From an uncultured Gammaproteobacteria bacterium (GTDB lineage Bacteria; Patescibacteriota; Microgenomatia; Levybacterales; GWA1-39-11), in NCBI GenBank assembly GCA_964409875.1, contig CAYPEN010000003.1, forward strand, positions 64,557 through 128,556: a stretch of 64,000 nt of DNA. Reading direction: 5' to 3'. The notes under the pieces were generated by a model. That model was not told the origin of the DNA and searched no databases. It saw nothing but the letters and a program-made list of their open reading frames with translations. Made by a program: the position numbers and the translations under genes. This document shows positions 39,014 through 63,694 of this stretch, one piece after another (the stretch's first letter is position 1; each line of letters begins with the position of its first letter).

Positions 39014-39687
39014 AATATCTGCTTCACGGTGACGATACTGTTTCGTCGCGAAAATTCATAAGTACCCTTGTAGAAGGGTATACCGTTACAGCAATTGAAG
39101 GAAAGTCACTTTTGACCCGTGACCTTGAGACTCAGCTTGTATCAACCGGACTTTTCGGAGACAAGAAAGCACTCATTATCGAAAATCTGCTCAGCAAAAA
39201 TTCACGGAAAAAGGAATTAATATCAATTCTTGTTACCCATAACGGACCGGTTTTAGTACTCGTGTGGGAGGATAAGAAGCTGCCGAAAACGTCATCTAGT
39301 GCAATGAAAGGTTTTGAGGTAAGAGAATTTATGCTTCCTTCCGTATACTTCCAATTCTTGGATAGCTTTTCGGAAAACAATGGAAAAAAATTGTTTGAAA
39401 TGTACCAAGAACTTCTAAAAACCGTGTCTGCAGAGCAGATATTCTACTCTCTGGTAAAAAGATTGAGACTGCTTTTGATTTTGTCGGGGAACGGAACGAG
39501 TGAAGAGATTTCCAAAATGTCTCCTTGGCAAAAGCAAAAACTTTCCCAGCAGGTCCGCTTTTGGAATAATTCTACACTTTTAAAGTTTTACCAAGAATTG
39601 CAAGATGCGGAAATTAAGCTTAAGAGTGGGAGACTTCCAATGGGCCTCTCGAAGCATCTTGACACTCTTATACTTTCTCGACTATGA
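39010..39687 (+). CDS. holA: DNA polymerase III delta subunit-like protein
   Basis: Size and N-terminal AAA-lid-like pattern fit the delta subunit. Weak similarity only. Confidence 0.45.
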   Translation: MKYLLHGDDTVSSRKFISTLVEGYTVTAIEGKSLLTRDLETQLVSTGLFGDKKALIIENLLSKNSRKKELISILVTHNGPVLVLVWEDKKLPKTSSSAMKGFEVREFMLPSVYFQFLDSFSENNGKKLFEMYQELLKTVSAEQIFYSLVKRLRLLLILSGNGTSEEISKMSPWQKQKLSQQVRFWNNSTLLKFYQELQDAEIKLKSGRLPMGLSKHLDTLILSRL

Positions 39688-39748
39688 TGATTTGTGTTGT
39701 CAGGAAAATGTCCAGACTTTAGAAAATAATTACTATACAGTAAGTTCC

Positions 39749-41566
39749 ATGACTGATGAATTAAAACCTCAACTCGACAGCGCTCTCCAACAAAAAAAGC
39801 TCAACGAAAAAGCTTACAAAGAAATAACCAAATGGTTAACAGATCCTGAGTTTGAAGAATTTGTACCGTCTCTTTCAGAAAGAATAAAAAGTGAGGATTG
39901 GGAATTCCTCATGGACGCTTTTTATCGGGTACTAATATTTGGTACCGGTGGAATACGTGGAGTGATGGATATCGGGACTAACCGCATGAATAACTACATG
40001 ATTCGTTGGGCATCCCAAGCATATGCTCAGTACATTCTCAAGCACAAAGCGGATATGAAAGACAGGGGTGTTGCAATTGCATTTGACTCACGGCACAATT
40101 CCGAGACCTTCATGAAAGAAACTGCAAGAGTCTTGGCCGCAAATGGCATTCCTGTGCACATTTATAATTACTACAAAGCTACTCCTCAATTGTCTTTCAC
40201 TGTTAGGGAACTTAAGTGTGTTGGTGGGATAGTGCTTACCGCAAGCCATAACCCTCCCAAATTCAATGGGTATAAAGTGTATGACGAGAACGGAGTCCAG
40301 GTTTTGCCCGATGTGGGACTTCAGATTGAGGAGGAATTTAATAATGTGTTACAGATTAAAAAAATTCCTTTTGAGGAAGCAGTCGCTAGCGGTATGATTA
40401 ATTATATTCCCGACGAGGTTAGCAAAAAATTTGCAGAAAGCGCGAAGAAAGCGTCAATTTACGGTAAACGGGACGTAAAAATCGTCTTTTCACCTCTTCA
40501 TGGAGTGGGTTCCCAGTCTGTACTTCCTGTTTTAAAGGAACTGGGATTTAATGACATCGTCCTCGTGCAGGAACAGATGGAGTTGAATGGAGATTTTCCA
40601 AATGTTACGGGACAATTTCCCAATCCTGAATTTCCCGTAGTCTACGATAAGGCAATAGACCTTGCAAAAAAAGAGAATGCGAATATTGTGCTCGTTAGTG
40701 ATCCGGATGCAGACCGCCTTGGGATGGCAGTTCCTGACGCAAAAGGGGAGTGGATACCTCTTAATGGAAATCAAGGGGCTGTTGTTATGGTCTATTTTAT
40801 CCTTGAGGCACTGAAGGAAAAAAATTCTCTTCCCCAAAACCCTGTCATGGTAAAAACTTCCGTTACAACCGAATTATTCAGAGATATCGCGGAAAGTTAC
40901 GGGGTAGAAGTTATTGGGGACTTGTTGGTAGGATTTAAGTTTATCGGGGATAGAATTGAGCATTTGCCATCCGACAAAACATTCATATTTGCGGCTGAGG
41001 AGAGTGTGGGATATCTGTTTGGGGATGCATATAGGGATAAAGGGGCTGAAACGCCGGCTGTCGTTGCCGCCGAAATGGCCGCCTACTGCAAGGAAAAAGG
41101 AATAACACCCATGGAGCTTTTGGAGAAGATATACCAACAATTTGGTTATTATGCAGAACGGCTTTTTTATAAAGAAATTACCGGCTTTGGAGCATTTGAC
41201 CAGATGAATTTGGCAATGAAGAAATTGAGAGAAAATCTCCCTAAGGAAATTGGGGGGCGTAAGGTATTGAAGGTTCTTGATAGGTTAACAGGAGAATTAA
41301 GGGACGGACAAACCGGTGAGCTTCTTGATACGAGAGCCTGGGACAAGGGAGATATGCTTTCATTTTTCTTTACTGAGGATGAGCGGACTGTAATTCACGC
41401 GCGGCCGTCAGGAACAGAGCCTAAAATGAAATATTACACCAATGTAAAGGGCAAACTTTCAGAGCAGTCGAAAGGCGAAATAATGCACGAGGCAGAAATC
41501 TTAGAGCAGGCAATTGCAAAAATTTTTGAAGAAATTCTTGCCACAGTGCAGGTGAACGTTTTTTAA
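39749..41566 (+). CDS. Phosphoglucomutase/phosphomannomutase family protein
   Basis: Active-site loop TASHNPPKFNGYKV and the four-domain PGM/PMM architecture. Confidence 0.9.
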   Translation: MTDELKPQLDSALQQKKLNEKAYKEITKWLTDPEFEEFVPSLSERIKSEDWEFLMDAFYRVLIFGTGGIRGVMDIGTNRMNNYMIRWASQAYAQYILKHKADMKDRGVAIAFDSRHNSETFMKETARVLAANGIPVHIYNYYKATPQLSFTVRELKCVGGIVLTASHNPPKFNGYKVYDENGVQVLPDVGLQIEEEFNNVLQIKKIPFEEAVASGMINYIPDEVSKKFAESAKKASIYGKRDVKIVFSPLHGVGSQSVLPVLKELGFNDIVLVQEQMELNGDFPNVTGQFPNPEFPVVYDKAIDLAKKENANIVLVSDPDADRLGMAVPDAKGEWIPLNGNQGAVVMVYFILEALKEKNSLPQNPVMVKTSVTTELFRDIAESYGVEVIGDLLVGFKFIGDRIEHLPSDKTFIFAAEESVGYLFGDAYRDKGAETPAVVAAEMAAYCKEKGITPMELLEKIYQQFGYYAERLFYKEITGFGAFDQMNLAMKKLRENLPKEIGGRKVLKVLDRLTGELRDGQTGELLDTRAWDKGDMLSFFFTEDERTVIHARPSGTEPKMKYYTNVKGKLSEQSKGEIMHEAEILEQAIAKIFEEILATVQVNVF

Positions 41567-46351: not shown

Positions 46352-47026
46352 TTAGGAATTTTTTGTTGAAAAGAGAAGAACGAATTCTCCTTTGGGTTGT
46401 TTGGTTGAATAGAGTTTTGTCAATTCCGAAGCTTTGTTTGAAAAGATATCCTCATGTATTTTTGTAAGTTCGCGTGCGACCGTTATTTCGATATCATCAA
46501 ACACTCCCTTTATCAATTCCAAAGTTTCACAAATTCTGTGTGGCGACTCATAAAGGACAACTGTTGTCTCAAGACTTTTAACCGACTCAAGATTTTTTAT
46601 AGCTTTTGACCTGGTTTTTGGGAGGAACCCTAGAAAAACAAACTTATCGGTTGGAAGACCAGAAGAAGAAAGTGCTGTAATGAGCGCTGACGGTCCGGGA
46701 ACCGGAATGACTCTTATGCCGCGTTTTCTTGCTTCAGAAACCAACCGGTAACCAGGGTCTGAGATAAGTGGGGTGCCCGCATCGGAAACAAGCGCAACAT
46801 CAACTGTTTTAAGAAGGCTTAGCGCCTCATACAGAACGTTTTCTTCATTGAATTCATTAAAAGGAATAAGTCTGCCGTTTTTTATCTCATATTTTTCCAA
46901 CAACTTTTTTGTCTGACGCGTATCCTCGCAAAGAACTGCCCCAACCTCATTTAAGGTCGAAAGAGCTCTTGAAGTAATATCTTGCATGTTGCCGATTGGA
47001 GTTGCTACAATGTACAAATTGCCCAT
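46352..47026 (-). CDS. rsmI: 16S rRNA (cytidine1402-2'-O)-methyltransferase RsmI
   Basis: LYIVATPIGN...CEDTR motifs of the tetrapyrrole methylase-fold RsmI family. Confidence 0.9.
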   Translation of the reverse strand: MGNLYIVATPIGNMQDITSRALSTLNEVGAVLCEDTRQTKKLLEKYEIKNGRLIPFNEFNEENVLYEALSLLKTVDVALVSDAGTPLISDPGYRLVSEARKRGIRVIPVPGPSALITALSSSGLPTDKFVFLGFLPKTRSKAIKNLESVKSLETTVVLYESPHRICETLELIKGVFDDIEITVARELTKIHEDIFSNKASELTKLYSTKQPKGEFVLLFSTKNS

Positions 47027-47638
47027 ATGTTAGAAATTGTCTCACATTTTATCATAAGCTTCATCCAATCTACCTCCTATCTCGGAATTTTTGTTCTTAT
47101 GGGCCTCGAGTCAGTGCTGATTCCTATTCCATCAGAAATTACAATGCCGTTCTCAGGATTTCTTGCTTCCCAAGGAACCTTGAATTTGTGGCTCGTTATA
47201 GTAACGGGAACGATAGCAAATCTTGTCGGGAGCCTTATTGCGTATTACATCGGATATTTTTTAGAAGAAACCGTTCTTTTGAAGCTTATCAGAAAATATG
47301 GGAAGTTTATACTTGTTTCTGAGAAAGAATACCGTCATGCAGAGCATTGGTTCCAAAAATACGGAGATAAAATCATTTTCATTTCCCGTCTACTCCCTGC
47401 TGTAAGAACCGTTATATCTCTACCCGCAGGAGTGTTCAGGATGAACATGAAGAAATTTGTTATTTACACTACGGTTGGGTGCTTTCTCTGGTCGGCATTC
47501 CTGACATATGTTGGATACGTCATGGGTGAGAATTGGAAAGCCCTAGACCCTTACTACCGAAAATTTGAGTACCTAATCCTTGCTGCCATCATTTTTGGCG
47601 GGATATATTTTGTCGTCAGAAAAATCCGTAAAGGTTAG
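47027..47638 (+). CDS. dedA: DedA family membrane protein
   Basis: SNARE-associated/DedA motif region (GLESVLIPIPSE...). Confidence 0.85.
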   Translation: MLEIVSHFIISFIQSTSYLGIFVLMGLESVLIPIPSEITMPFSGFLASQGTLNLWLVIVTGTIANLVGSLIAYYIGYFLEETVLLKLIRKYGKFILVSEKEYRHAEHWFQKYGDKIIFISRLLPAVRTVISLPAGVFRMNMKKFVIYTTVGCFLWSAFLTYVGYVMGENWKALDPYYRKFEYLILAAIIFGGIYFVVRKIRKG

Positions 47639-51734: not shown

Positions 51735-54614
51735 ATGGACAAAAAAATTATTATCAAAGGAGCCCGTGAACACAATCTAAAAGGAATAGATGTCGATATC
51801 CCGAAAGACAAATTAGTCGTTTTTACCGGACTTTCCGGAAGCGGTAAGTCATCTTTAGCCTTCGATACTATTTATGCCGAGGGACAGAGGCGTTATGTGG
51901 AGAGTCTGTCATCATATGCGCGGCAGTTTTTGGGTATCATGAAAAAGCCCAATGTAGATTTTATCGAGGGGCTTTCTCCTGCAATCTCAATTGACCAAAA
52001 GACAACATCCCACAATCCCCGTTCAACCGTCGGAACGGTCACAGAAATTTACGATTATCTTCGGCTTCTATTTGCACGAGTCGGGCATCCCCATTGTCCA
52101 AAGTGTGGGAGAGAAATAACGCGTACGACAAAGGAAAAAATAGTTGAGGAGATAGTCAATAAATTTGTTGGTGTGCATCCGACGAAAGTCATGATACTAT
52201 CTCCTATTGTCAGTGGTAGAAAAGGGGAATACATCGACCTATTTAAAGACCTACGGAAAAGATCTTTTCAGCAGGTAAGAATTGACGGGAAAATTATAAG
52301 CCTTAACGCCGATATTTCACTAATCAAAACCAACAAGCACACCATCGAGGCGATAGTCGATAAACTAATTTTGGATAAAAATTACGAAAGACAACGGGTT
52401 TTGGACTCTGTCGAGCAGGCCTTGTCTTTGGGAAGCGGGGAAATAATTATCTCCGAGGTAAAGGATAAAAGTTTTACATTCCCCGAAACGCCAACTGAAA
52501 TGGAGGACACATTTTATTCTGAGAAGTTTGCATGCCCTTATGATGGAACACCTATGCCAAAAATTGAGCCCAGACTTTTTTCGTTTAATTCTCCTTTTGG
52601 TGCGTGCCCTGAGTGTAATGGGCTTGGAAATATTATGACTGTTGATGAGGAATTGGTTCTCAATCCCCATCTGACAATTTCTGAGGGAGGAATTTTAGCA
52701 TTTGCCAATTTGTATGACCGAGAGACCTGGCTTACAAGAACTTTAAAAACGGCTTTTGAAGAAAATGATATCCCGATGACGGAGCTTATTATGACTCTTA
52801 CGCCTGAGCAAAAAAAGATTGTGTTGTACGGAACTGGGGATAGGGTTTATAAAGTAAAAGGCAGAAATCGCTTTGGAGAGCACACCTCAATTTACGAGAC
52901 GTATCCTGGAGTTGTCGGATATTTACAGGCTCGTTTCCTCGAGACCGATTCCGAGCTTATAAAAAAGGAAATCCAAAAATTTATGACCGCAAAAGTGTGT
53001 GACACATGTCTTGGTGCAAGGCTCAAACCTGAAGCATTGGCGGTAACAATTGACGGCAAATCAATTGTTGAAGTTTCGGATTTGTCCATTGAAGATTGTT
53101 ATGAATTTATGAAAGGGTTGAATGTAAAACTCGAGGGCAGGGAAATTCAGATTGCAACAATAATTTTAAAAGAAATTAATGCCCGCCTGAAATTCCTTTT
53201 TGATGTGGGGCTTTCATACCTTACGCTTTCGAGGTCTGCTGAATCATTGGCAGGAGGAGAGGCGCAAAGAATACGGCTTGCATCCCAAATTGGGAGCGGA
53301 CTTTCAGGGGTTCTGTATGTTCTTGACGAACCCTCCATTGGACTTCACCCTAGGGATAACACAAAGCTTATCGGAACACTTAAACACCTTCGTGATATCG
53401 GAAATTCGGTAGTGGTTGTTGAGCACGACAAAGAGATGATGATGGAATCGGATTATATTTTTGATTTTGGACCGGGAGCGGGTGAACACGGTGGTAACAT
53501 TATCGCTCAAGGAACTCCTCAGCAAATAGAAAATGATGAAAATTCTATTACTGGAAAATACCTATCAGGAAAAGCAAAAATAAAGATTAAGAAAGAGAGT
53601 CTTATTGAACCTGAGAGCCAGCGGTTCATTAGCCTTAAGGGCGTTACAGAACATAATTTACAAAATATTACCGTTGATTTTCCGCTCGGCAAGTTCATTT
53701 GCATAACGGGAGTATCAGGGAGTGGTAAATCAACACTAATAAATGACGTTTTTTACCATGCGGTGGCTCATTACAAAAATCCCTTCCATAAAGAAAAACC
53801 CGGAAAATTTACCGAAATATCTGGATACGATGAAGTAAAGAGGATTTTTATGATTGACCAGTCTCCAATTGGCAGGACTCCCCGTTCAAATCCGGCCACA
53901 TATACCGGTGCTTTTACTTATATACGGGATATTTTTGCAAATTCACGGGATGCCCGGATGAGAGGGTATGGTCCAGGCAGGTTCTCATTCAATGTTAAAG
54001 GTGGAAGATGTGAAACGTGTGAAGGAGAGGGACAAATAAAAATTGAAATGCAATTTCTACCCGATGTATATGTAAAATGCGAAACCTGCAATGGTACCAG
54101 ATATACGCAGGATACTCTTGAAATCCAATTTGATGGTAAGAACATTTCTGAAGTTTTAAATATGTCTGTTGAGGAGGCAATTCCTTTCTTCTCATTTCAC
54201 GAACCGCTTTCTTCGCGCCTTACAACTCTGAAAGAAGTGGGTTTGTCATATATTCGTCTTGGACAACCGGCTACTACTCTTTCAGGGGGTGAAGCGCAAA
54301 GGATAAAACTCGCCTCAGAACTTTCGAAAAAAGGAGGAGGAGGGTCTTTGTATGTGCTCGATGAGCCGACTACGGGACTTCACTTTGCTGACCTTGAGAA
54401 GCTTATCCAGGTTTTAAGACGTTTGGTTGATAAAGGAAATACGGTTATTGTAATCGAACACAACCTCGATCTTATTAAAAACGCCGATTATATAATCGAC
54501 CTTGGACCCGAAGGGGGACACTTGGGAGGAAAAATTGTTGCAACCGGAACTCCGAAAGAAATAGCTAAAGCACCTTATTCTTATACCGGACAGTATCTCA
54601 AAAAGGAGCTGTAA
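51735..54614 (+). CDS. uvrA: Excinuclease ABC subunit A
   Basis: Two ABC ATPase modules with zinc-finger inserts; 959 aa. Confidence 0.95.
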
Positions 54615-56452
54615 TGAAAAAGATACTGTTTTCCGTATTACCACTACTGTTACTATTTTTCCCACAGTATGTATATGCGAAAGACAACAATTTCGATATT
54701 TCGGTTGAGTCAAAATACACAGTGCATGATACCGGGATAACAACCGTATCCCAAACAATACACATCAAAAACAAAACCGAATTTTATTACACCCCAACGT
54801 ACACAGTTTCTATAGGGTTTTCAGATATCGAAAATATCGAAGCTTCCAACTCTGACGGTGGTATCCCCACAACAATTGATGACAAAAACCCCACAAATAA
54901 AAGTATCAAACTTACGTTCCCCAAGCGGTACGCAGGACTCTCAACTGTTAATACATTCACGTTAAAATTTGATACTAAGGATATAGCCAAAAAACAAGGG
55001 AACATTTGGGAAGTAACCATACCCGGTATTGCTGAGCCCGCTGATTTTGATAGTTATAGTACGACAATTGTTACTCCTGCCTCATTTGGAGAGGCAAGTG
55101 TCATAAAACCTGCCATCGAAAATAATAGCGCGTCAAATATCAAACTCACAAAGGAGGAAGTTGGAAGAGCGGGGGTTTATATTCTGTATGGACAAAAACA
55201 GTACTATGCATTTACCGTAAAGTATAATATCTCCAATCCAAACCTTTTTCCCGTAAAAACAGAGATTGCCCTGCCACGACAAACGAATTATCAGAACGTA
55301 CTCATAAATGAATTTTCATCAGAACCTTATGACGTAATAAAAGATAGAGACGGGAATTGGCTCGCGTCGTATAGGCTTTCCCCACAGCAGAAAAAAACAG
55401 TTGTAGTCAAAGGAGTTATTGAGCTTTTTGCAAGCCCACAAAGAGAAGAACTCTCCGCCTCTCAGGTGAGGGACTATACCCAGCCAAGGAAATATTGGGA
55501 TGCAACCACGCCTGCTATAAATAAGGCCGCGCAGGGCATGTCTACCCCTAAAGACATATATAACTACGTGCAAAAAACGCTGTCCTATAATTACACTAAA
55601 ATCGCGACTGATAACATACGGCTTGGTGGAAAAGGCGCTCTGGCAACACCAAACAATAGTGTTTGTCTTGAGTTTACAGATCTTTTTATATCTCTTGCGA
55701 GGGCAAAGGGAATACCTGCCCGTTCGGTCGAAGGGTATGCATATACTCAAAACACGAAGCTTCGCCCACGCTCACTTGCAAATGATATTTTGCATGCATG
55801 GCCCGAATACTACTCCCAAAGCCAAAAGCGGTGGGTAATGGTAGACCCGACATGGGGAAATACGACGAAGGGGATGGATTATTATGAGAATTTGGATTTT
55901 TCGCATATTGCATTTGTAATTAAAGGACTTGATAGCGAATATCCTATTCCTGCAGGAGGGTATAAATTTGATACGACATCAAAGGATGTTGAAGTTTCAT
56001 TTGCTAAGGCTTCACAATTTGTTGCCAACCAAAAACTGAAGATAGCCGATACATTTCCCGATTTTTCATTTCCCAAAATGACTATCCAAGGCAGTTTTGA
56101 GATACAAAATACAGGGAATGCCCCATTTGAAAATGCTGTTGTGAATGTTGTAACTAACAGAAAAACAACAAGGCAATTCCTCATAGATTATATTCCGCCC
56201 GGAGGAATAAAGCGCATTACTACCTCTTTTTCAGATGTTCCATTTTTGACAAACGGGAATGAGGTCATTACAATGCAGATTGGGAATGAGAAATACGTGA
56301 AGACTATCAAGATTTCGTTTGTTCCCGATATCACACAATTATTATTCATAGGAGGAATTTTAGGTGGAGCAAGCATTGTTGCAGCAATTACCTTCCGCAC
56401 CGGGAGTGTACTTGTTCAAAGACGAAAAGGGAAAAATTCTATACGTAGGTAA
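54614..56452 (+). CDS. Secreted transglutaminase-like cysteine protease domain protein with C-terminal TM anchor
   Basis: Signal peptide. Catalytic Cys-His-Asp core (VCLEFTDLF...HAWPEYY...VDPTWG). C-terminal TM helix. Confidence 0.8.
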   Translation: MKKILFSVLPLLLLFFPQYVYAKDNNFDISVESKYTVHDTGITTVSQTIHIKNKTEFYYTPTYTVSIGFSDIENIEASNSDGGIPTTIDDKNPTNKSIKLTFPKRYAGLSTVNTFTLKFDTKDIAKKQGNIWEVTIPGIAEPADFDSYSTTIVTPASFGEASVIKPAIENNSASNIKLTKEEVGRAGVYILYGQKQYYAFTVKYNISNPNLFPVKTEIALPRQTNYQNVLINEFSSEPYDVIKDRDGNWLASYRLSPQQKKTVVVKGVIELFASPQREELSASQVRDYTQPRKYWDATTPAINKAAQGMSTPKDIYNYVQKTLSYNYTKIATDNIRLGGKGALATPNNSVCLEFTDLFISLARAKGIPARSVEGYAYTQNTKLRPRSLANDILHAWPEYYSQSQKRWVMVDPTWGNTTKGMDYYENLDFSHIAFVIKGLDSEYPIPAGGYKFDTTSKDVEVSFAKASQFVANQKLKIADTFPDFSFPKMTIQGSFEIQNTGNAPFENAVVNVVTNRKTTRQFLIDYIPPGGIKRITTSFSDVPFLTNGNEVITMQIGNEKYVKTIKISFVPDITQLLFIGGILGGASIVAAITFRTGSVLVQRRKGKNSIRR

Positions 56453-57650
56453 AGCTAAGGACCTAAAAAAGCGCGTATCTTCGTATTTTTCAAATAAGGC
56501 ACTTGATGCAAAGACATTAAAATTGGTATCTCTTGCTGCAGATATTGAGACAATTCAGGTTTCCTCGGAAATTGAAGCATTTCTTCTAGAATCGACACTT
56601 ATCAAAAAGCATAAGCCTTTTTACAATATCAAACTCATTGATGATAAGTCGTATCCTATGATTGAAATAACTACGAACGAAAACCCATCGGTTACTATTA
56701 CCCGGAAAAAAACAGACAAAAAAGCACACTATTACGGTCCCTATTCCGATGCAACAGCCCTTAAAACAGTTCTAAAGCTTATTAGGCGAATCTTTCCTTA
56801 CCAGTCGGTGAAAAATCATCCAAAAAGAAAATGTTTGTATTTCCATCTGGGACTTTGCCCTTGTTTGCCGGTAAATCCTGAAAAAAGGGAGGAATACAAA
56901 AATAACTTAAGGAATATAGGGAGATTTTTAGACGGAAAAAAAGATATGGTAATTAAATTATTGAGCAAAGAACGGGATAATTTTGCACAAGAAGAGGAGT
57001 TTGAGAGGGCCGCTTTGGTGCAACAGAGAATCGAGCGGATAACACTCATAACGAGTCCTACATACGACCCATTCCATTATATGGATAAGCCGGATTTTTA
57101 TTTTGAACGCATAGAAAGAGAAGTGCAGTCATTGAAAGAAATTCTTGCAGACTATTATGCTGATTTGGGAAATCTTGAGAGAATTGAATGCTATGATATT
57201 TCAAATTTTTCAGGCAAGCAAGCGACGGGGTCGATGGTTGTATTCCTAAACGGAGAAAAGGCAGCCAAAGAATACAGAAGATTTAAAATAAGGACTAAGG
57301 ATACACCTGACGACTTCCATATGATGCGGGAAATGCTCATGAGGCGCCTCAATAATGATGGGTGGCCCATTCCGCAACTGTTAGTTATTGATGGTGGAAA
57401 GGGACAAGTGGGAGCGGCGTTAAAGGCGTTGGCTAATATGGGAAAAAGAATCCCTGTTATTGGACTTGCAAAAAGAGAAGAAATAATCGTTGTCCCCTTA
57501 AAAAAACCTGGAGGAATTGAATTTGCAGAAGTAAAACTTCCTCATTCAACACCCGGCATTAACCTTCTGAGAAGAGTGCGTGACGAAGCGCACCGTTTTG
57601 CAGTTACATATCACAGGCTGCTTCGGAAAAAAGCCATGCTTCCCTCCTGA
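56364..57650 (+). CDS. uvrC: Excinuclease ABC subunit C, compact form lacking the C-terminal HhH domain
   Basis: N-terminal GIY-YIG (PGVYLFKDEKGKILYVGKAKDLKKR), a UVR motif (EEFERAALVQQRIERI) and an RNase H-like IDGGKGQ motif. 428 aa. Overlaps the previous gene by 89 nt. Confidence 0.8.
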   Translation: MEQALLQQLPSAPGVYLFKDEKGKILYVGKAKDLKKRVSSYFSNKALDAKTLKLVSLAADIETIQVSSEIEAFLLESTLIKKHKPFYNIKLIDDKSYPMIEITTNENPSVTITRKKTDKKAHYYGPYSDATALKTVLKLIRRIFPYQSVKNHPKRKCLYFHLGLCPCLPVNPEKREEYKNNLRNIGRFLDGKKDMVIKLLSKERDNFAQEEEFERAALVQQRIERITLITSPTYDPFHYMDKPDFYFERIEREVQSLKEILADYYADLGNLERIECYDISNFSGKQATGSMVVFLNGEKAAKEYRRFKIRTKDTPDDFHMMREMLMRRLNNDGWPIPQLLVIDGGKGQVGAALKALANMGKRIPVIGLAKREEIIVVPLKKPGGIEFAEVKLPHSTPGINLLRRVRDEAHRFAVTYHRLLRKKAMLPS

Positions 57651-58150: not shown

Positions 58151-58366
58151 ATGAATATATTAGCGATTATCCAAGTCATTCTTTCGCTTCTTCTTATTGT
58201 AACAATTATTTTGCAACAGCGTGGAAGTGAAGCGGGAATTGCTTTTGGAGGAGGCGGAGAAAGCTTTAGAAGCAAAAGAGGGTTGGAGAGATTTCTTTTT
58301 TATGCGACAATTGTACTTGCAGTTCTCTTTGCTGCCAACTCCATCCTAACACTCGTATTGCAATAG
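58151..58366 (+). CDS. secG: Preprotein translocase subunit SecG
   Basis: 71 aa, two TM helices and a Gly-rich loop (GIAFGGGGESF). Confidence 0.8.
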   Translation: MNILAIIQVILSLLLIVTIILQQRGSEAGIAFGGGGESFRSKRGLERFLFYATIVLAVLFAANSILTLVLQ

Positions 58367-58370
58367 ATTT

Positions 58371-59714
58371 ATGGCGACTCTCAAAAGGCGATATTACGCT
58401 TGGCTCATAAAAGCGTACTTCAAGAAGATGCGCCGGACCATCATTAGTTCGCTCATTTTGGGTATACTAATTTTTTTCGCCCTTATTGGGCTCATCAATT
58501 ACTATTTCCGACCTCTCATATTTAAGACAACAGAAAATGTTGGGTATACGGGGACGTACACCATACAGACCATGCCCAAGGAAATACTCAACCAGATAAG
58601 CTATGGTTTAACAAAAGTGAATTCGGGCGGACAAGTTGTTCCGGGTGCCTCAACTTCCTGGTCAATTTCCGATAACAAAATATATACTTTTAAAATAAAG
58701 CAAGGCATTAAATTTCATAACGGCGAAGAATTGACAAGTAAAAATGTGAATTACAATTTTGAGGATGTAAATACGAAAGTGATCGATAAATATACTATAC
58801 AATTTGCATTAAAAAATCCTTATTCACCTTTTCTAACAACAGTTGCTAGACCAATTTTCGGGAAGAAATTATCGGGAATCGGAAAGTATAAAGTTGAAAA
58901 TATCGACCTTAACGGTGGGTTCGTACGAAGCATTACACTTGCTGATACTGCCTTGAATAATAGGAAGAGAAAAATATATTTTTATCCAACGCAGCGTGCT
59001 TTAAAAGTTGCATTTCTTCTTGGAGAAGTGAGTAAAATTTATGGTGCATCCTCAACGAAAATTGACGACACAGATCTTGCGAAATGGTCAAAGGTTAAGT
59101 CTCAAGGGTATATTAATTATTCATCTCTTATATCTATATTTTACAATAGCAATGATTCTGTTCTGAATAACAAAAAAATACGCCAGGCACTCAACTACGC
59201 ACTTCCGGCCAGTGTAGATATGGGGGAAAGAGCATTCGGTCCCATACCTCCCAATTCTTTGTATTTCAGCCAACCCCCTTCGTATAAGATTTCAGACATA
59301 GAGCTTTCGAAAACGCTCCTTTCATCCATTAAAGAACCCCTCAATGAAACACTGACTATTTCGACAACCGATGAATACCAGAGAGTTGCCCAGGAAATTC
59401 AAAAAGCATGGGAGCAATTGGGAGTAAAGACTAAAATAAAGCTGGTGCAAGATATCCCTACCGACTTTCAAATTTTTATCTATAAAATTAAAATTCCCGA
59501 AGATCCGGACCAGTATGTTTTATGGCACTCGGACCAAGCAAATAACATTACCCATTATAAAAATCTTCGAATCGATAAATTGCTTGAAGACGGGCGGTCA
59601 ATAACTGATATCGAAAAAAGGAAAAAAATATATGCAGATTTTCAGAAATACCTTACGGACGACGTACCTGCATCTTTTTACTATTTTCCCCGTGAATATA
59701 ATCTTACAAAATAA
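58371..59714 (+). CDS. Membrane-anchored family-5 solute-binding protein-like (no cognate permease nearby)
   Basis: N-terminal TM anchor plus SBP_bac_5-like region (GIKFHNGEELTSKNV). Confidence 0.6.
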   Translation: MATLKRRYYAWLIKAYFKKMRRTIISSLILGILIFFALIGLINYYFRPLIFKTTENVGYTGTYTIQTMPKEILNQISYGLTKVNSGGQVVPGASTSWSISDNKIYTFKIKQGIKFHNGEELTSKNVNYNFEDVNTKVIDKYTIQFALKNPYSPFLTTVARPIFGKKLSGIGKYKVENIDLNGGFVRSITLADTALNNRKRKIYFYPTQRALKVAFLLGEVSKIYGASSTKIDDTDLAKWSKVKSQGYINYSSLISIFYNSNDSVLNNKKIRQALNYALPASVDMGERAFGPIPPNSLYFSQPPSYKISDIELSKTLLSSIKEPLNETLTISTTDEYQRVAQEIQKAWEQLGVKTKIKLVQDIPTDFQIFIYKIKIPEDPDQYVLWHSDQANNITHYKNLRIDKLLEDGRSITDIEKRKKIYADFQKYLTDDVPASFYYFPREYNLTK

Positions 59715-59716
59715 AT

Positions 59717-62053
59717 CTAAGGAAGACAGTTATTTGTGCATTCAACGGAATCCCTTCTCTTAAAAAGATAGAAATTGTTTTTCGTGTCTTGGACAAGTGC
59801 CGTATATTTCACATGTGTAACAGAATTAACGAATGATTTTTTTTCACCGTACAAAACAACATAATCGGCTTTATCCATGGCAAAAGGAACAACATAAATA
59901 TTCTCTCTATGGGAAAGATGGGCCCCAATGTTATTCGAGGCACTCACGGAGGCATTGGGGGGAATTAGCGAAAGGTATCGTGATATCTCAGATGTATTTT
60001 GAGCAACATACGGCCTGTAATCTGCATCCTTCATCGCCGGAATAGGTGAGTAGAAATATGCACTGATAACGGCGGCGAACAAAATATAATAAAAAAGGAT
60101 TTTGTTAAGTTTTATGTGGGAAAATTTACGGCTCAGGTTTTTTATGCCATACATTGTTGAAATATAAACAAAAGGCACGATTATTGCACCATAATGGTAA
60201 TGATAGGAGCGGAGATTTTGATTGCTTGAGAGGAGGCTAATTGCCATATCGGGCAATGTAAAAATAAGATATAAGGGGTTTAATAATGCTAAATATCCGG
60301 TGGGGACTAGAAGCTGATGCAGGTAGGTTAGCGAGGAAAGACTTAACAGGTGACTAATGATAATTTGGGGATGAAGTAAAAGGTTTTTGACAATTCCCTG
60401 CGTTGAGCCTCCTAAATATGAATAGTATGAAAGAGCAAAATGAGTAGTTCCGCGTGCGTTCGGGATAGCCTTTGAAGTAAGGTAGAAAAAAATAAGAGTG
60501 GGGAGAATTGTCAGGATGAGCCCCGGTATGATTTTCTTCTGTTTGACTATAAGGTAGAGACCAAAAATGCTTGCAACGAGAAAGACATTTTCTTTTGTCA
60601 TAACAGAGAGTGCAAGAAAAAGAACGAATAATATATACCGTCTTTTCAATAAAAAGTAAAAGGTGGCCAGCAGAAGTGTGGTGCCGATACTTACCGCATG
60701 AAAGTCAAAAATATTCTGTTCATGTATCCAGAAATTCAGTAAAAATGACAGGGATAATGCCAGTGAGAGTTTATCGTTTTTTAAAATCTCCTTAGATAGC
60801 AGAAATATGACTATTCCACCTAGGGCAAGGGCTAAAGATTGGGTTATCAAAAGCACTTTAGGGTCCGACCAAAGAAAATAGAGAGGTGCAAATAAAACAA
60901 GCAGGATATCGGAATGGTCGGCAAGCCTGGATATTTTTTCAGTGCCGTCAGGATTTGTCAGCATGAAAAAATTTCCTTTCGAAGTGTTCCAAACGGTTTG
61001 GGACATGTTACCTAAGTCAAACCTTCCTGAAAGGTATGCGTCATGTCTTGTAAGAGTGTAGGATGTAAAAAAAATAAAGTAGAGAAGGGATGCGGTAACA
61101 GTTATCAAAATATAAGGATTTATCTTTAGTAACTTTGAGTTGCTTTTCATGTGCCCAATTGCATAGGCAACAAAAAGATATAAAAGCTCGCCTATAACCA
61201 TACCAATACGGGTGAGAATTGCAACAACAGACGCAATCGAAACCGGAAGGAATAATGAAAGACTTCCAACAATGACAAGCTCTCTTATTCCAAGCCCCAT
61301 AGGTGTAATAAATAGCAGATACCCCGCAAGCCAAGAGAGGACAAAAAATGAAAGCATGAAGACTGTATTGGTAGGATAAATGTAGGTGAATGAAAGTGCG
61401 ATAAAAAAACAACCGAGGGCATAGAGTATCCATGCAAGCATAAAGAGGAGAAGACTGTCAAAATATTTGGTGACCGTGTTTCTGAATTTGAGGTAGGAAA
61501 TTCCACATATAAGTGAGAAAAGAGAAGCAAGAACTACGGTGGGGACAAAAAAAGGCACACTATGAAGTTCCCGCGCCTTAAAAAGAGGGTATGTAAGTGC
61601 CGGTACGGATACTATTAATGCAGAAAGGGCAAGCAGAAGTGCTTCGATTCCGATGCCTTTCAGCGTTTCTTTATGGGGAACTTCATCGGAGAGTGCATGC
61701 ATTCTTCCCATGAACGCAAAAACACTTCCAGGTATATATCTTTTAATTTCTGAGAGAGAATACTTCCAAATAGTTTTTCGGGGCGAAAGCTCATACCCCC
61801 TCTTTTTTAATATCTCAAGCCAAATGAGGGATTTAATTCCAAAAAAAGTAGCAAAGAAAATAACACCAATTAAAAAAAGTATGGGGTTAACCGAAAGAAG
61901 TGAGTGAAAAATAAGTGTTCGGTTATCGAAAAATATCTTGAAAATGAAAATGAACGCAAGCACAGTAACAGGAATTCCTAAGAATTTCCTGAGAAGTTGT
62001 TTTGCTCTTTGCATGGGAAAATTAGGACTCGAAGCGTATTGGTGGTTGGTCAT
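59717..62053 (-). CDS. Fusion membrane protein: N-terminal flippase-like (LPG-synthase TM) domain plus C-terminal DUF2079 GT-C-like glycosyltransferase
   Basis: 778 aa with more than 20 predicted TM segments. RFDLGNMSQTVWNT matches the DUF2079 signature region. Confidence 0.6.
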   Translation of the reverse strand: MTNHQYASSPNFPMQRAKQLLRKFLGIPVTVLAFIFIFKIFFDNRTLIFHSLLSVNPILFLIGVIFFATFFGIKSLIWLEILKKRGYELSPRKTIWKYSLSEIKRYIPGSVFAFMGRMHALSDEVPHKETLKGIGIEALLLALSALIVSVPALTYPLFKARELHSVPFFVPTVVLASLFSLICGISYLKFRNTVTKYFDSLLLFMLAWILYALGCFFIALSFTYIYPTNTVFMLSFFVLSWLAGYLLFITPMGLGIRELVIVGSLSLFLPVSIASVVAILTRIGMVIGELLYLFVAYAIGHMKSNSKLLKINPYILITVTASLLYFIFFTSYTLTRHDAYLSGRFDLGNMSQTVWNTSKGNFFMLTNPDGTEKISRLADHSDILLVLFAPLYFLWSDPKVLLITQSLALALGGIVIFLLSKEILKNDKLSLALSLSFLLNFWIHEQNIFDFHAVSIGTTLLLATFYFLLKRRYILFVLFLALSVMTKENVFLVASIFGLYLIVKQKKIIPGLILTILPTLIFFYLTSKAIPNARGTTHFALSYYSYLGGSTQGIVKNLLLHPQIIISHLLSLSSLTYLHQLLVPTGYLALLNPLYLIFTLPDMAISLLSSNQNLRSYHYHYGAIIVPFVYISTMYGIKNLSRKFSHIKLNKILFYYILFAAVISAYFYSPIPAMKDADYRPYVAQNTSEISRYLSLIPPNASVSASNNIGAHLSHRENIYVVPFAMDKADYVVLYGEKKSFVNSVTHVKYTALVQDTKNNFYLFKRRDSVECTNNCLP

Positions 62054-62960
62054 CTTCGGTGTTTCTATTGAAATTGACCATTAAATCGGCTAGTAAACCG
62101 GTAAATATGGTTTGTATCCCGGCAATAACAAAAAGTACCCCGAATATTAAAAGAGGTCTGTTGCCAATAGAATGTCCTAAAAGCTTAATTATTACTAAAT
62201 AAATTAGCATAATGCTTCCTGCCAGAAGCAGCGTTCCTCCCAGTTTTGAGAAAAAATGAAGAGGCCGTCTTGTATATTTCACCAAAAAATACATTGTAAT
62301 AAGGTCAGGAATATCTGTCAGAACTTTTGTCGATTTATATTTTGAAAATCCGTACTTTCGGGGTCGATGCAATATATCAACTTCTTTTACCTTAAAGCCC
62401 ATCTCATGCGCCAAAATCGGGATAAACCGGTGCATGCCACCATAAATTTTGATTTCTTTTGCAAGTTGTTTTTTGTAAAGTTTGAGCCCTGAGTTCATAT
62501 CTTTGAAATTTGTCCCGAATAAGAATGGAATTATCATATTGTTGAAAAATTTTGAGTTTGTTTTTTTGAGGAGTGTATCGCGTCTGTTTTTCCGCCAACC
62601 TGAAACTAAATCATAATCTCCTTCACTTTGGGTTACTATCAAGCGTTCGATGTTTTGAGGGTCGTCCTGTAAATCTGCATCCATCGTTACGATGTATTCG
62701 CCTTGTGCTTTCTGAAATCCAAAAGATAAGGCAACCGATTTGCCCAAATTTTTGCGGAACGAAAAAATTCTGATATTATGATTTTTTCTTGCTAGCTCTT
62801 TGAGGAGGTGCAGGGTGTTGTCCGTAGAACCGTCATCAATAAATAGTATCTCATATTTCTTTCCAAGTTTTGAAAACGCGTCGTGGATTTGGTTTGTTAA
62901 CTCCGGAACGCTTTCTTCTTCGTTGAGAATTGGAATAACGACACTAAATTCAGGTTTCAT
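62022..62960 (-). CDS. GT2 polyprenyl-phosphate sugar synthase (DPM1/ArnC/GtrB-like) with two C-terminal TM helices
   Basis: VVIPILNEE...DDGSTD...DADLQDDP motifs of GT2 dolichyl-phosphate sugar synthases. Confidence 0.85.
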   Translation of the reverse strand: MKPEFSVVIPILNEEESVPELTNQIHDAFSKLGKKYEILFIDDGSTDNTLHLLKELARKNHNIRIFSFRKNLGKSVALSFGFQKAQGEYIVTMDADLQDDPQNIERLIVTQSEGDYDLVSGWRKNRRDTLLKKTNSKFFNNMIIPFLFGTNFKDMNSGLKLYKKQLAKEIKIYGGMHRFIPILAHEMGFKVKEVDILHRPRKYGFSKYKSTKVLTDIPDLITMYFLVKYTRRPLHFFSKLGGTLLLAGSIMLIYLVIIKLLGHSIGNRPLLIFGVLFVIAGIQTIFTGLLADLMVNFNRNTEDDQPPIRFES

Positions 62961-63171: not shown

Positions 63172-63289
63172 AATGGCTAAAAGAGTTTGGTTATAGAATA
63201 ATTGTGAATGGGCGGCTAAACAAGTTTGGCCACCCAATAAGTGTGAATAGGGCGGCTAAACAAGTTTGGCCACCCAATAAGTGTGAGTA
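63172..63289 (+). repeat. Three tandem ~39-nt units (GGGCGGCTAAACAAGTTTGGCCACCCAATAAGTGTGARTA; first unit degenerate), each beginning with the 5' end of the adjacent tRNA-Lys
   Basis: Direct inspection. Units 2 and 3 are identical except for 1 nt. The tRNA-Lys 5' end GGGCGGCTA starts every unit. Confidence 0.85.
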
Positions 63290-63361
63290 GGGCGGCTAGC
63301 TCAATGGTAGAGCAATTCCCTCTTAAGGAATCGGTTCAGGGTTCGAGTCCCTGGCCGCTCA
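63290..63361 (+). tRNA. tRNA-Lys (CTT)
   Basis: Cloverleaf: acceptor GGGCGGC/GCCGCTC, anticodon loop CTCTTAA. Confidence 0.9.
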
Positions 63362-63424
63362 CCCAGCTAAGCTGGGTGGCAGCCCGCTTAGCGAGCTCAC
63401 TGTGATATTATCAATTAATGCACT

Positions 63425-63694
63425 ACGTATACATTCTTTTTTCACAAAAAGATAAACTCCTTATATACTGGTTTTACAAATGATCTTAAATCTCGTTTAA
63501 ACAAGCATCAAAATGGTTATGTGGCAGCTACAAAAAACAGAAGACCTCTTTCTCTAATATATTACGAGGCTTACAGTAATGAAGGTGATGCCAGAAGAAG
63601 AGAAACATACTTAAAAGGAGGTAAGGGAAAATCAGAATTGAAGATTCAGCTTGGTGAGACATTTATTGAAATTGGTTATGCAAAAAGAAGGTAA
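63425..63694 (+). pseudogene. Small GIY-YIG nuclease family protein with ACG where the ATG start is expected
   Basis: Translation gives TYTFFFHKKINSLYTGFTNDLKSRLNKHQNG...RRRETYLKGG, the classic ~90-aa GIY-YIG family. No ATG, GTG or TTG precedes it in frame after the upstream stop. Confidence 0.55.

Follow-up and report, generated by a model that had tools for sequence, protein, structure and literature searches.

A predicted two-gene module for extracytoplasmic glycosylation in Patescibacteria, with an MprF-type flippase domain fused to a DUF2079 GT-C module

Introduction

Three-component systems of extracytoplasmic glycosylation include GtrABC, the CsbB/GtcA/YfhO system of lipoteichoic acid, and ORF15/14/12 of Citrobacter O antigens (PMC11127046, PMC8035078). 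In these systems, clustered genes encode a GtrB/ArnC-like family 2 glycosyltransferase (GT2) that makes a polyprenyl-phosphate monosaccharide, a proposed membrane flippase, and an external glycosyltransferase of the GT-C fold. Flippases of polyprenyl-phosphate monosaccharides are so far unproven, and flipping has not been directly demonstrated even for GtrA and its analogues (PMC11127046). Here we analyse a gene pair that resembles these systems. It lies in a 64,000-nucleotide stretch of DNA, hereafter called the window (contig CAYPEN010000003.1 of assembly GCA_964409875.1, positions 64,557 to 128,556), from an organism deposited as an uncultured Gammaproteobacteria bacterium and placed by GTDB in the Levybacterales of the Patescibacteriota. 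The first gene encodes a GT2. The second encodes a protein of 778 amino acids that, by sequence and structural model, combines an MprF-type flippase domain with a DUF2079 module of GT-C fold in one polypeptide. We think it rather probable that the pair forms a two-gene, three-function module of the GtrABC kind in which flippase and transferase make up a single protein.

Two other groups of proteins are relevant to this prediction. MprF is a promiscuous scramblase that moves phospholipids without an external energy source (PMC11980842). Its stand-alone relatives of family PF03706 (UPF0104, COG0392) include YbhN/PplT, as well as HexF and GpgF, which are proposed glycolipid flippases. According to the PplT preprint, the domain also occurs fused to GT-A, GT-B, kinase or O-antigen-ligase domains, and GT-C is not mentioned in the main text. 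In archaea, UPF0104 genes (arCOG00899) are found beside genes encoding AglD-like GT2 (arCOG00897) and PMT/STT3-like proteins (arCOG00563), and are predicted to encode the flippases of glycosylation systems (Makarova et al. 2015, PMC5898192).

The locus shares with the GtrABC-like systems the three classes of components and the clustering of their genes, but its flippase candidate is of another type. It is an eight-helix domain of the MprF/PF03706 type, the only flippase candidate in the operon, where proteins of the GtrA/GtcA, SMR or MATE types are not present. It is also covalently fused to the GT-C module, this module belongs to the uncharacterised family DUF2079, and there is no acceptor-glycan locus nearby. 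The archaeal systems show the same association of three functional classes, including a UPF0104 protein as the predicted flippase of the lipid-linked sugar. Yet, AglD carries its UPF0104 domain on the GT2, whereas here the domain is fused to the GT-C module. The archaeal GT-C proteins are also of another family and their systems use dolichol, whereas the locus described here is bacterial.

Results and Discussion

The GT2 protein

The GT2 gene (62022-62960) encodes 312 amino acids; this gene and its partner are on the minus strand, as are all their features given below. The protein matches the Pfam family PF00535 (E-value 2.3e-34). Its GT-A catalytic domain spans approximately residues 5-230 (62271-62948) and is followed by two hydrophobic segments, the predicted C-terminal transmembrane helices, at around residues 238-295 (62076-62249). 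The top NCBIfam model is ArnC (PRK10714, 5e-55), followed by PgfS (5e-38) and then AglJ. Residues 5-294 align with the structures of ArnC (9hwj, residues 10-295, 6e-49) and of the GtrB protein sll0501 (5eke, residues 27-311, 2e-28), in alignments that take in the IDDGS motif, the DADLQ motif (D94-D96) and both C-terminal helices. By alignment, the DAD motif (D94-A95-D96, 62673-62681) would bind the metal and the nucleotide sugar. A preliminary description of the locus had called this protein DPM1/ArnC-like, and the full-length alignments bear this out. The sequence firmly places the protein in the class of polyprenyl-phosphate sugar synthases (ArnC/GtrB/DPMS), a placement that does not identify the sugar. 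We rejected the possibility that it is ArnC proper, i.e., the synthase of undecaprenyl-phosphate-linked 4-deoxy-4-formamido-L-arabinose, because its score with the ArnC model (186.6 bits) is far under the equivalog cutoff (529).

The likeness to the ArnC/ArnE-F/ArnT pathway extends to ArnT, whose structure (5f15) is one of those matched by the partner protein (see below). However, genes for ArnA, ArnB, ArnD, ArnE and ArnF are absent here and the flippase is of another type. As a member of the Patescibacteria, the organism very likely lacks lipid A.

The junction between the two genes

The gene of the fusion protein (59717-62053) encodes 778 amino acids as its longest open reading frame (ORF), and 765 when read from Met14. 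The junction with the GT2 gene (62012-62053) contains both candidate start codons, the first ATG at 62053 and that of Met14 at 62012-62014, as well as the stop codon of the GT2 gene (62022-62024). If the first ATG is taken, the longest ORFs share 32 nucleotides (62022-62053), as initially reported. Four observations favour Met14. The NCBI gene call for an identical protein (P0163) has 765 amino acids and starts at this codon (window position 62014); the N-termini of the fusion homologs align at this position; the upstream ATG falls within the GT2 codons GAA-GAT-GAC; and the computed distance to the GT2 stop codon is then a gap of 7 nucleotides. Hence, Met14 is the likelier start, and the 32-nucleotide overlap, correct for the longest ORFs, is probably a start-codon artefact as far as the gene structure is concerned.

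We compared this junction with those of related loci (L numbers designate loci and P numbers proteins). The equivalent junction is a four-nucleotide ATGA overlap in L009, L011, L012, L015, L021 and L022, and a four-nucleotide gap in L010. The GT2 gene and its partner are thus tightly coupled, whichever start codon applies. On the 5' side of the GT2 gene there is a short intergenic region, and then divergent genes for tRNA-Arg and tRNA-Lys. Scans for promoters and terminators between 59400 and 63400 were uninformative, since the counts were no higher than in shuffled sequence.

The N-terminal domain of the fusion protein

Residues 14-301 of the fusion protein (61151-62014) form a transmembrane domain of the MprF type (PF03706/UPF0104). 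This assignment is based on Pfam matches in homologs, on the fold, on a profile match and on a conserved salt bridge. PF03706 was matched by 7 of 15 homologs (best E-value 3e-15) and by 28 of the 47 full-length fused homologs (best 1.4e-18), and the homolog P0058 exceeds the gathering score. Several of the homologs are labelled “YbhN (UPF0104 family)” by JGI. A separate structural model of residues 1-310 reached a pLDDT of 90.6. When it was compared with the PDB using Foldseek, it matched MprF structures only (7duw, 7f47, 9goe, 9j8q and 6lvf; TMq 0.66-0.71, rmsd around 4.3 Å), and the best match outside of MprF had a TMq below 0.25. The best PDB match of a sequence profile of 52 homologs (A3) was the MprF of Pseudomonas aeruginosa (PaMprF, 9goe, E-value 0.004). 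The fusion sequence itself and two narrower profiles (A1 and A2) gave nothing significant against the PDB, with MprF at an E-value of 0.8 only. Serotonin receptors also appeared in these searches, and we discarded them as noise caused by transmembrane bias.

In the hidden Markov model (HMM) alignment, the GVRE of the domain is opposite GVFE(295) of PaMprF and its tR opposite YR(319). E258 (61280-61282) and R282 (61208-61210) are therefore the counterparts of E295 and R319, described as a conserved salt bridge of MprF (PMC11980842). Both are invariant across the 47-52 homologs, and the other invariant residues of the domain are R105, P108, G109, G244, P251, G253, G255 and R257.

Taken together, these data indicate that the N-terminal half belongs to the MprF flippase family, with lipid translocation as its predicted activity. 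It shares the fold (MprF 7duw, 7f47 and 9goe) and the Glu-Arg salt bridge with MprF and the stand-alone PF03706 proteins (YbhN/PplT, HexF and GpgF) and, as in MprF, it is tied to an enzyme modifying a lipid-anchored head group. However, its partner is an outward-facing GT-C module, whereas that of MprF is a cytoplasmic aminoacyl-phosphatidylglycerol synthase, and the expected substrate is a polyprenyl-phosphate sugar instead of a glycerolipid. The preliminary description had proposed a flippase domain of the lysylphosphatidylglycerol-synthase type for this half. The kinship holds through the homologs, the fold and the profile, but not as a direct Pfam match of the window's own sequence.

A basic linker (MKSNSKLLKIN, residues 302-312, 61118-61150), predicted to be cytoplasmic, separates the two membrane modules. 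It was placed using the helices of the model and the counts of Lys and Arg, and it corresponds to the gene boundary in relatives where the two modules are split.

The DUF2079 module

The GT-C membrane module covers residues 313-668 (60050-61117) and has around 11 transmembrane helices. The Pfam match to DUF2079 (PF09852, E-value 2.5e-68) spans residues 336-727 (59873-61048) and thus extends into a mixed alpha/beta C-terminal domain (residues 669-778, 59720-60049) that is predicted to be extracytoplasmic. The AlphaFold2 model of the fusion protein, built on the 47 full-length homologs, had a pLDDT of 90.6 and a pTM of 0.89. Leaving MprF aside, all its Foldseek matches in the PDB with probability above 0.8 were GT-C folds. 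The C-terminal half matched STT3, PglB, ArnT (5f15, TMt 0.45), DPY19 and ALG9 with probability 1.00; AftA, EmbB, PIG-U and Pmt4 were also above 0.8, and ALG3 was weaker (0.60).

The invariant polar residues among the 47 fused homologs are D346, R376, H380, D382, D450, H452, K487, E488 and R716. We derived the topology of the module from the helices of the model and the positive-inside rule, with cytoplasmic loops carrying KRR, KQKK and a stretch rich in Lys and Arg (638-651). On this topology, every invariant polar residue falls in an extracytoplasmic loop or in the C-terminal domain, where R716 is located. The first extracytoplasmic loop (residues 339-397, 60863-61039) contains D346, R376, H380 and D382. 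In GT-C enzymes, the catalytic Asp is found just after the first transmembrane helix. D346 (61016-61018) comes just behind the first helix of the module (residues 313-338), where a juxtamembrane helix (344-358) begins, which makes it a candidate catalytic Asp by analogy and on the model. The GT-C assignment made in the preliminary description is thus corroborated by the Pfam match and the fold, and the first outer loop has two invariant acidic residues, D346 and D382, in keeping with a GT-C catalytic site.

At the level of sequence, the C-terminal half matched no Pfam family besides PF09852, either in the fusion protein or in the 47 homologs, and no sequence of the PDB. By sequence it thus belongs to no GT-C family that is characterised or listed in CAZy. 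DUF2079 is a GT-C fold according to the model, and glycosyltransferase activity is predicted from this fold.

Related loci in other genomes

Both modules are present in 152 of 273 retrieved relatives, and 102 have DUF2079 only. An exhaustive search returned 12,234 proteins at E-value below 1e-3, of which 1,137 were below 1e-30. The named relatives are from Levybacteria, Saccharimonadales and the “Patescibacteria group”. Most of the GTDB genome contigs L007-L023 carry the title “uncultured Gammaproteobacteria bacterium”, whereas the proteins that they encode have their nearest named kin in Levybacteria and other Patescibacteria; these titles look like placeholders or wrong taxonomy.

The three parts occur in several arrangements. 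In the clade of the window (L007-L012 and L015), the GT2 gene is directly 5' of the fusion, at 48-76% identity, and the same arrangement is found in L020 at 28% identity. In L021 and L022, a GT2 gene precedes DUF2079 alone, without the MprF-like part. In split forms (L002-L005, L017 and L018), an MprF-like gene of 310-340 codons overlaps the start of a DUF2079 gene encoding about 470 residues. The loci without an adjacent GT2 gene usually have MacAB-like genes, the fusion, a gene with ATP-cone and Mrr_cat domains, and a gene for an IMS (DinB-like) polymerase, in this order. Any two of the three parts are thus linked in some genomes, and the bond between flippase and DUF2079 is the more constant one. 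The split forms and the GT2-DUF2079 pairs support the view that all three are functionally linked.

Some homologs have an additional domain. P0024, P0025, P0037 and P0058, which are fused, and P0070, which has DUF2079 only, carry behind DUF2079 a C-terminal alpha/beta-hydrolase domain of about 300 residues that resembles Hydrolase_4, Peptidase_S9 and BD-FAE. Its presence suggests that, on the outer side of the membrane, the transferase is coupled to an esterase or peptidase activity. We had considered the homologs of 1080-1104 residues as possible triple fusions with a GT2, and rejected this because their extra domain is this alpha/beta hydrolase. Among the relatives that have no GT2 gene alongside, a gene of about 190-200 codons stands right before the flippase/DUF2079 genes in L013 (4069-4638), L016 (5252-5869), L017 (5353-5922) and L026 (4410-4997). 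The products in L013, L016 and L017 have the motif KKPY.EF.TA.L..PVLL; the gene of L026 is grouped with them by size and position only, with no Pfam match recorded.

These arrangements bear on a first alternative, in which DUF2079 would be another type of GT-C-fold enzyme, e.g., a polymerase, a ligase or a transferase of something other than sugars, while the GT2 would act in a different pathway and be its neighbour incidentally. The lack of any sequence-level match between DUF2079 and a characterised GT-C family leaves room for this, as does the absence of the GT2 from around half of the related loci, and the alpha/beta-hydrolase domain of some members hints at chemistry beyond sugar transfer. 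Yet, the adjacency of GT2 and DUF2079 recurs at identities of 28-76%, even where there is no flippase domain, and the ATGA start/stop overlaps are typical of co-translated partners. The structural matches of the C-terminal half with probability above 0.8 are also transferases of lipid-linked sugars, except for PIG-U, a subunit of the glycosylphosphatidylinositol transamidase with a GT-C fold. We regard this alternative as quite improbable.

The predicted pathway and its alternatives

The reading that we favour, a GtrABC-like module with fused flippase and transferase, has three steps. In the first, the GT2, anchored by its two C-terminal transmembrane helices, would move a sugar from a nucleotide sugar onto polyprenyl phosphate at the cytoplasmic face of the membrane; this step is well supported by the sequence of the protein. 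In the second, the MprF-type domain would let the polyprenyl-phosphate sugar equilibrate across to the outer leaflet with no need for external energy, as we infer by analogy with the scramblase activity of MprF and with the prediction made for archaeal UPF0104 proteins. In the third, the fused DUF2079 module would take the flipped donor and pass its sugar on to an external acceptor, which could be a wall polymer, a surface protein or a lipid. The fold, the topology and the invariant residues point to this last step, with an outward-facing site made of D346, R376, H380 and D382 in the first loop, D450 and H452 in the second, and K487 and E488 in the third. The fusion would pass the donor straight from flippase to transferase. 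It had been suggested that the two genes constitute a complete pipeline of synthesis, flipping and transfer. The three domain assignments and the linkage of the genes agree with this, whereas completeness is itself an inference, and around half of the related loci have no adjacent GT2.

Several observations weigh against this reading. A GT2 gene is not adjacent in L002-L006, L013, L014, L016-L018 and L024-L026, i.e., in around half of the related loci examined. The window's own N-terminal half gave no match in Pfam scans, even at E-values up to 10, or in NCBIfam scans, and so falls below Pfam detection, unlike MprF. The hinge proline of transmembrane helix 8 of PaMprF (P326) corresponds to E289, a nearly invariant Glu in the homologs. 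The MprF family and PF03706 have phospholipids and glycolipids as their known or proposed substrates, and in the literature searched no PF03706-family protein is reported to move a polyprenyl-phosphate sugar. We also found there no functional paper on DUF2079, PF09852, COG3463 or IPR018650, and thus no characterised member of the family. Finally, there is no cluster for glycan biosynthesis or acceptor synthesis in the window.

A second alternative keeps the same parts and the same pathway, but gives the MprF-type domain another task: it would return polyprenyl phosphate to the inner side, thereby recycling the carrier, or present a phospholipid or glycolipid acceptor to the transferase. In its favour, the demonstrated or proposed substrates of the MprF family are not polyprenyl carriers, and MprF is a promiscuous scramblase. 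The many flippase/DUF2079 loci without a neighbouring GT2 can also be read in this way, since the conserved partner of the flippase is then the transferase and not the synthase of the donor. Carrier recycling is attributed to DedA and DUF368 proteins, and the window has a DedA/VTT-domain membrane protein (46982-47638, plus strand; PF09335, 3e-25) that could fulfil it. The implication of the DedA/VTT family in polyprenyl-phosphate recycling and lipid scrambling bears on the question of which protein recycles the carrier. Furthermore, a scramblase would not discriminate between donor, product and carrier, so that the difference between this alternative and donor flipping may be one of degree, and the archaeal neighbourhoods have been read as flipping of a donor or a glycan. 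We hold carrier recycling or acceptor presentation as the main task of the domain to be unlikely.

The solute-binding protein and other neighbours

The fusion gene and a convergent neighbour on the plus strand (58371-59714) have their stop codons 2 nucleotides from each other. The neighbour encodes a solute-binding protein (SBP) of the SBP_bac_5 family (PF00496, 7e-30) with an N-terminal hydrophobic membrane anchor. The preliminary description had seen in it an adjacent orphan, possibly the acceptor of the glycosylation or an accessory component. It is indeed adjacent and anchored, it has no ABC transporter partners in the region examined, and close relatives retain the adjacency (L007, L010, L012 and L015). 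However, its convergent orientation implies that it is not co-transcribed with the fusion, and it starts 4 nucleotides behind the end of the SecG gene (58151-58366, plus strand; PF03840, 7e-14). It is less an orphan than a member of a conserved block consisting of a transglutaminase-like gene, UvrC, a holin-like gene, SecG and the SBP, and this block is what L007, L010, L012 and L015 have kept. In L002, L004 and L005 the SecG-SBP block is 5-7 kb from the flippase/DUF2079 pair, in L024 it is at the edge of the locus, and no SBP is found within the flank in L013, L014, L016-L022, L025 and L026. On the basis of orientation and synteny we rejected the SBP as a component of the system, and its role as acceptor or accessory subunit seems to us very improbable.

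Two genes of this block have features of their own. The UvrC-like ORF (56364-57650, plus strand) is short, with 428 amino acids as the longest ORF and 412 in the gene call of L001. It overlaps the end of the gene at 54614-56452 (plus strand), whose product is a membrane-anchored protein of 612 amino acids with a transglutaminase-core domain and a sub-threshold match to CARDB (E-value 0.0018, 18.9 bits for a gathering score of 22.7). The pair is conserved among relatives. The other large ORFs of the window are housekeeping genes, e.g., those encoding LexA, UvrB, UvrA, enolase, DnaE, GatA, GatB, BipA, CTP synthase and a P-type ATPase. A mutase of the PGM/PMM type is encoded at a distance (39605-41566).

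On the other side of the gene pair, a 40-bp unit is repeated 2.6 times (63197-63298, 95% match) upstream of the tRNA-Lys(CTT) gene (63290-63363) and runs into it. Each unit holds the first nucleotides of this tRNA, about nine (GGGCGGCTA), as if its 5' end had been duplicated. Further along (63418-63694, plus strand), a small GIY-YIG-like gene is broken by a frameshift of one nucleotide near 63460, with MHYVYILFSQKDKLL in one frame and LYTGFTNDLKSRLNKHQNGY in the next. It may be a pseudogene or reflect an assembly error. The GIY-YIG label comes from motif recognition only, and the 3' ORF of 57 codons has no Pfam match at E-value ≤ 0.001.

Implications

Although automatic annotations already show the fusion of flippase and DUF2079, we found no paper on it in the literature searched. 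In the manner of a Rosetta stone, the fused, split and GT2-coupled forms are evidence that bacteria use PF03706 proteins in GT-C glycosylation, a role that had earlier been predicted for archaea only. A bolder version of our reading, which we put forward tentatively as possible rather than probable, is that the MprF-type domain is a dedicated scramblase of polyprenyl-phosphate monosaccharides, physically coupled to the transferase that consumes them, that PF03706 is a general family of donor flippases, and that DUF2079 is a new GT-C family that glycosylates the surface of Patescibacteria. If so, PF03706 would answer the question of what flips polyprenyl-phosphate and dolichyl-phosphate monosaccharide donors. 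Since flipping and transfer would be carried out by a single polypeptide, they could be assayed together. DUF2079, with its approximately 12,000 detectable relatives, would gain a testable function. The module would also point to a route of surface glycosylation in the Patescibacteria, whose envelopes are poorly known.

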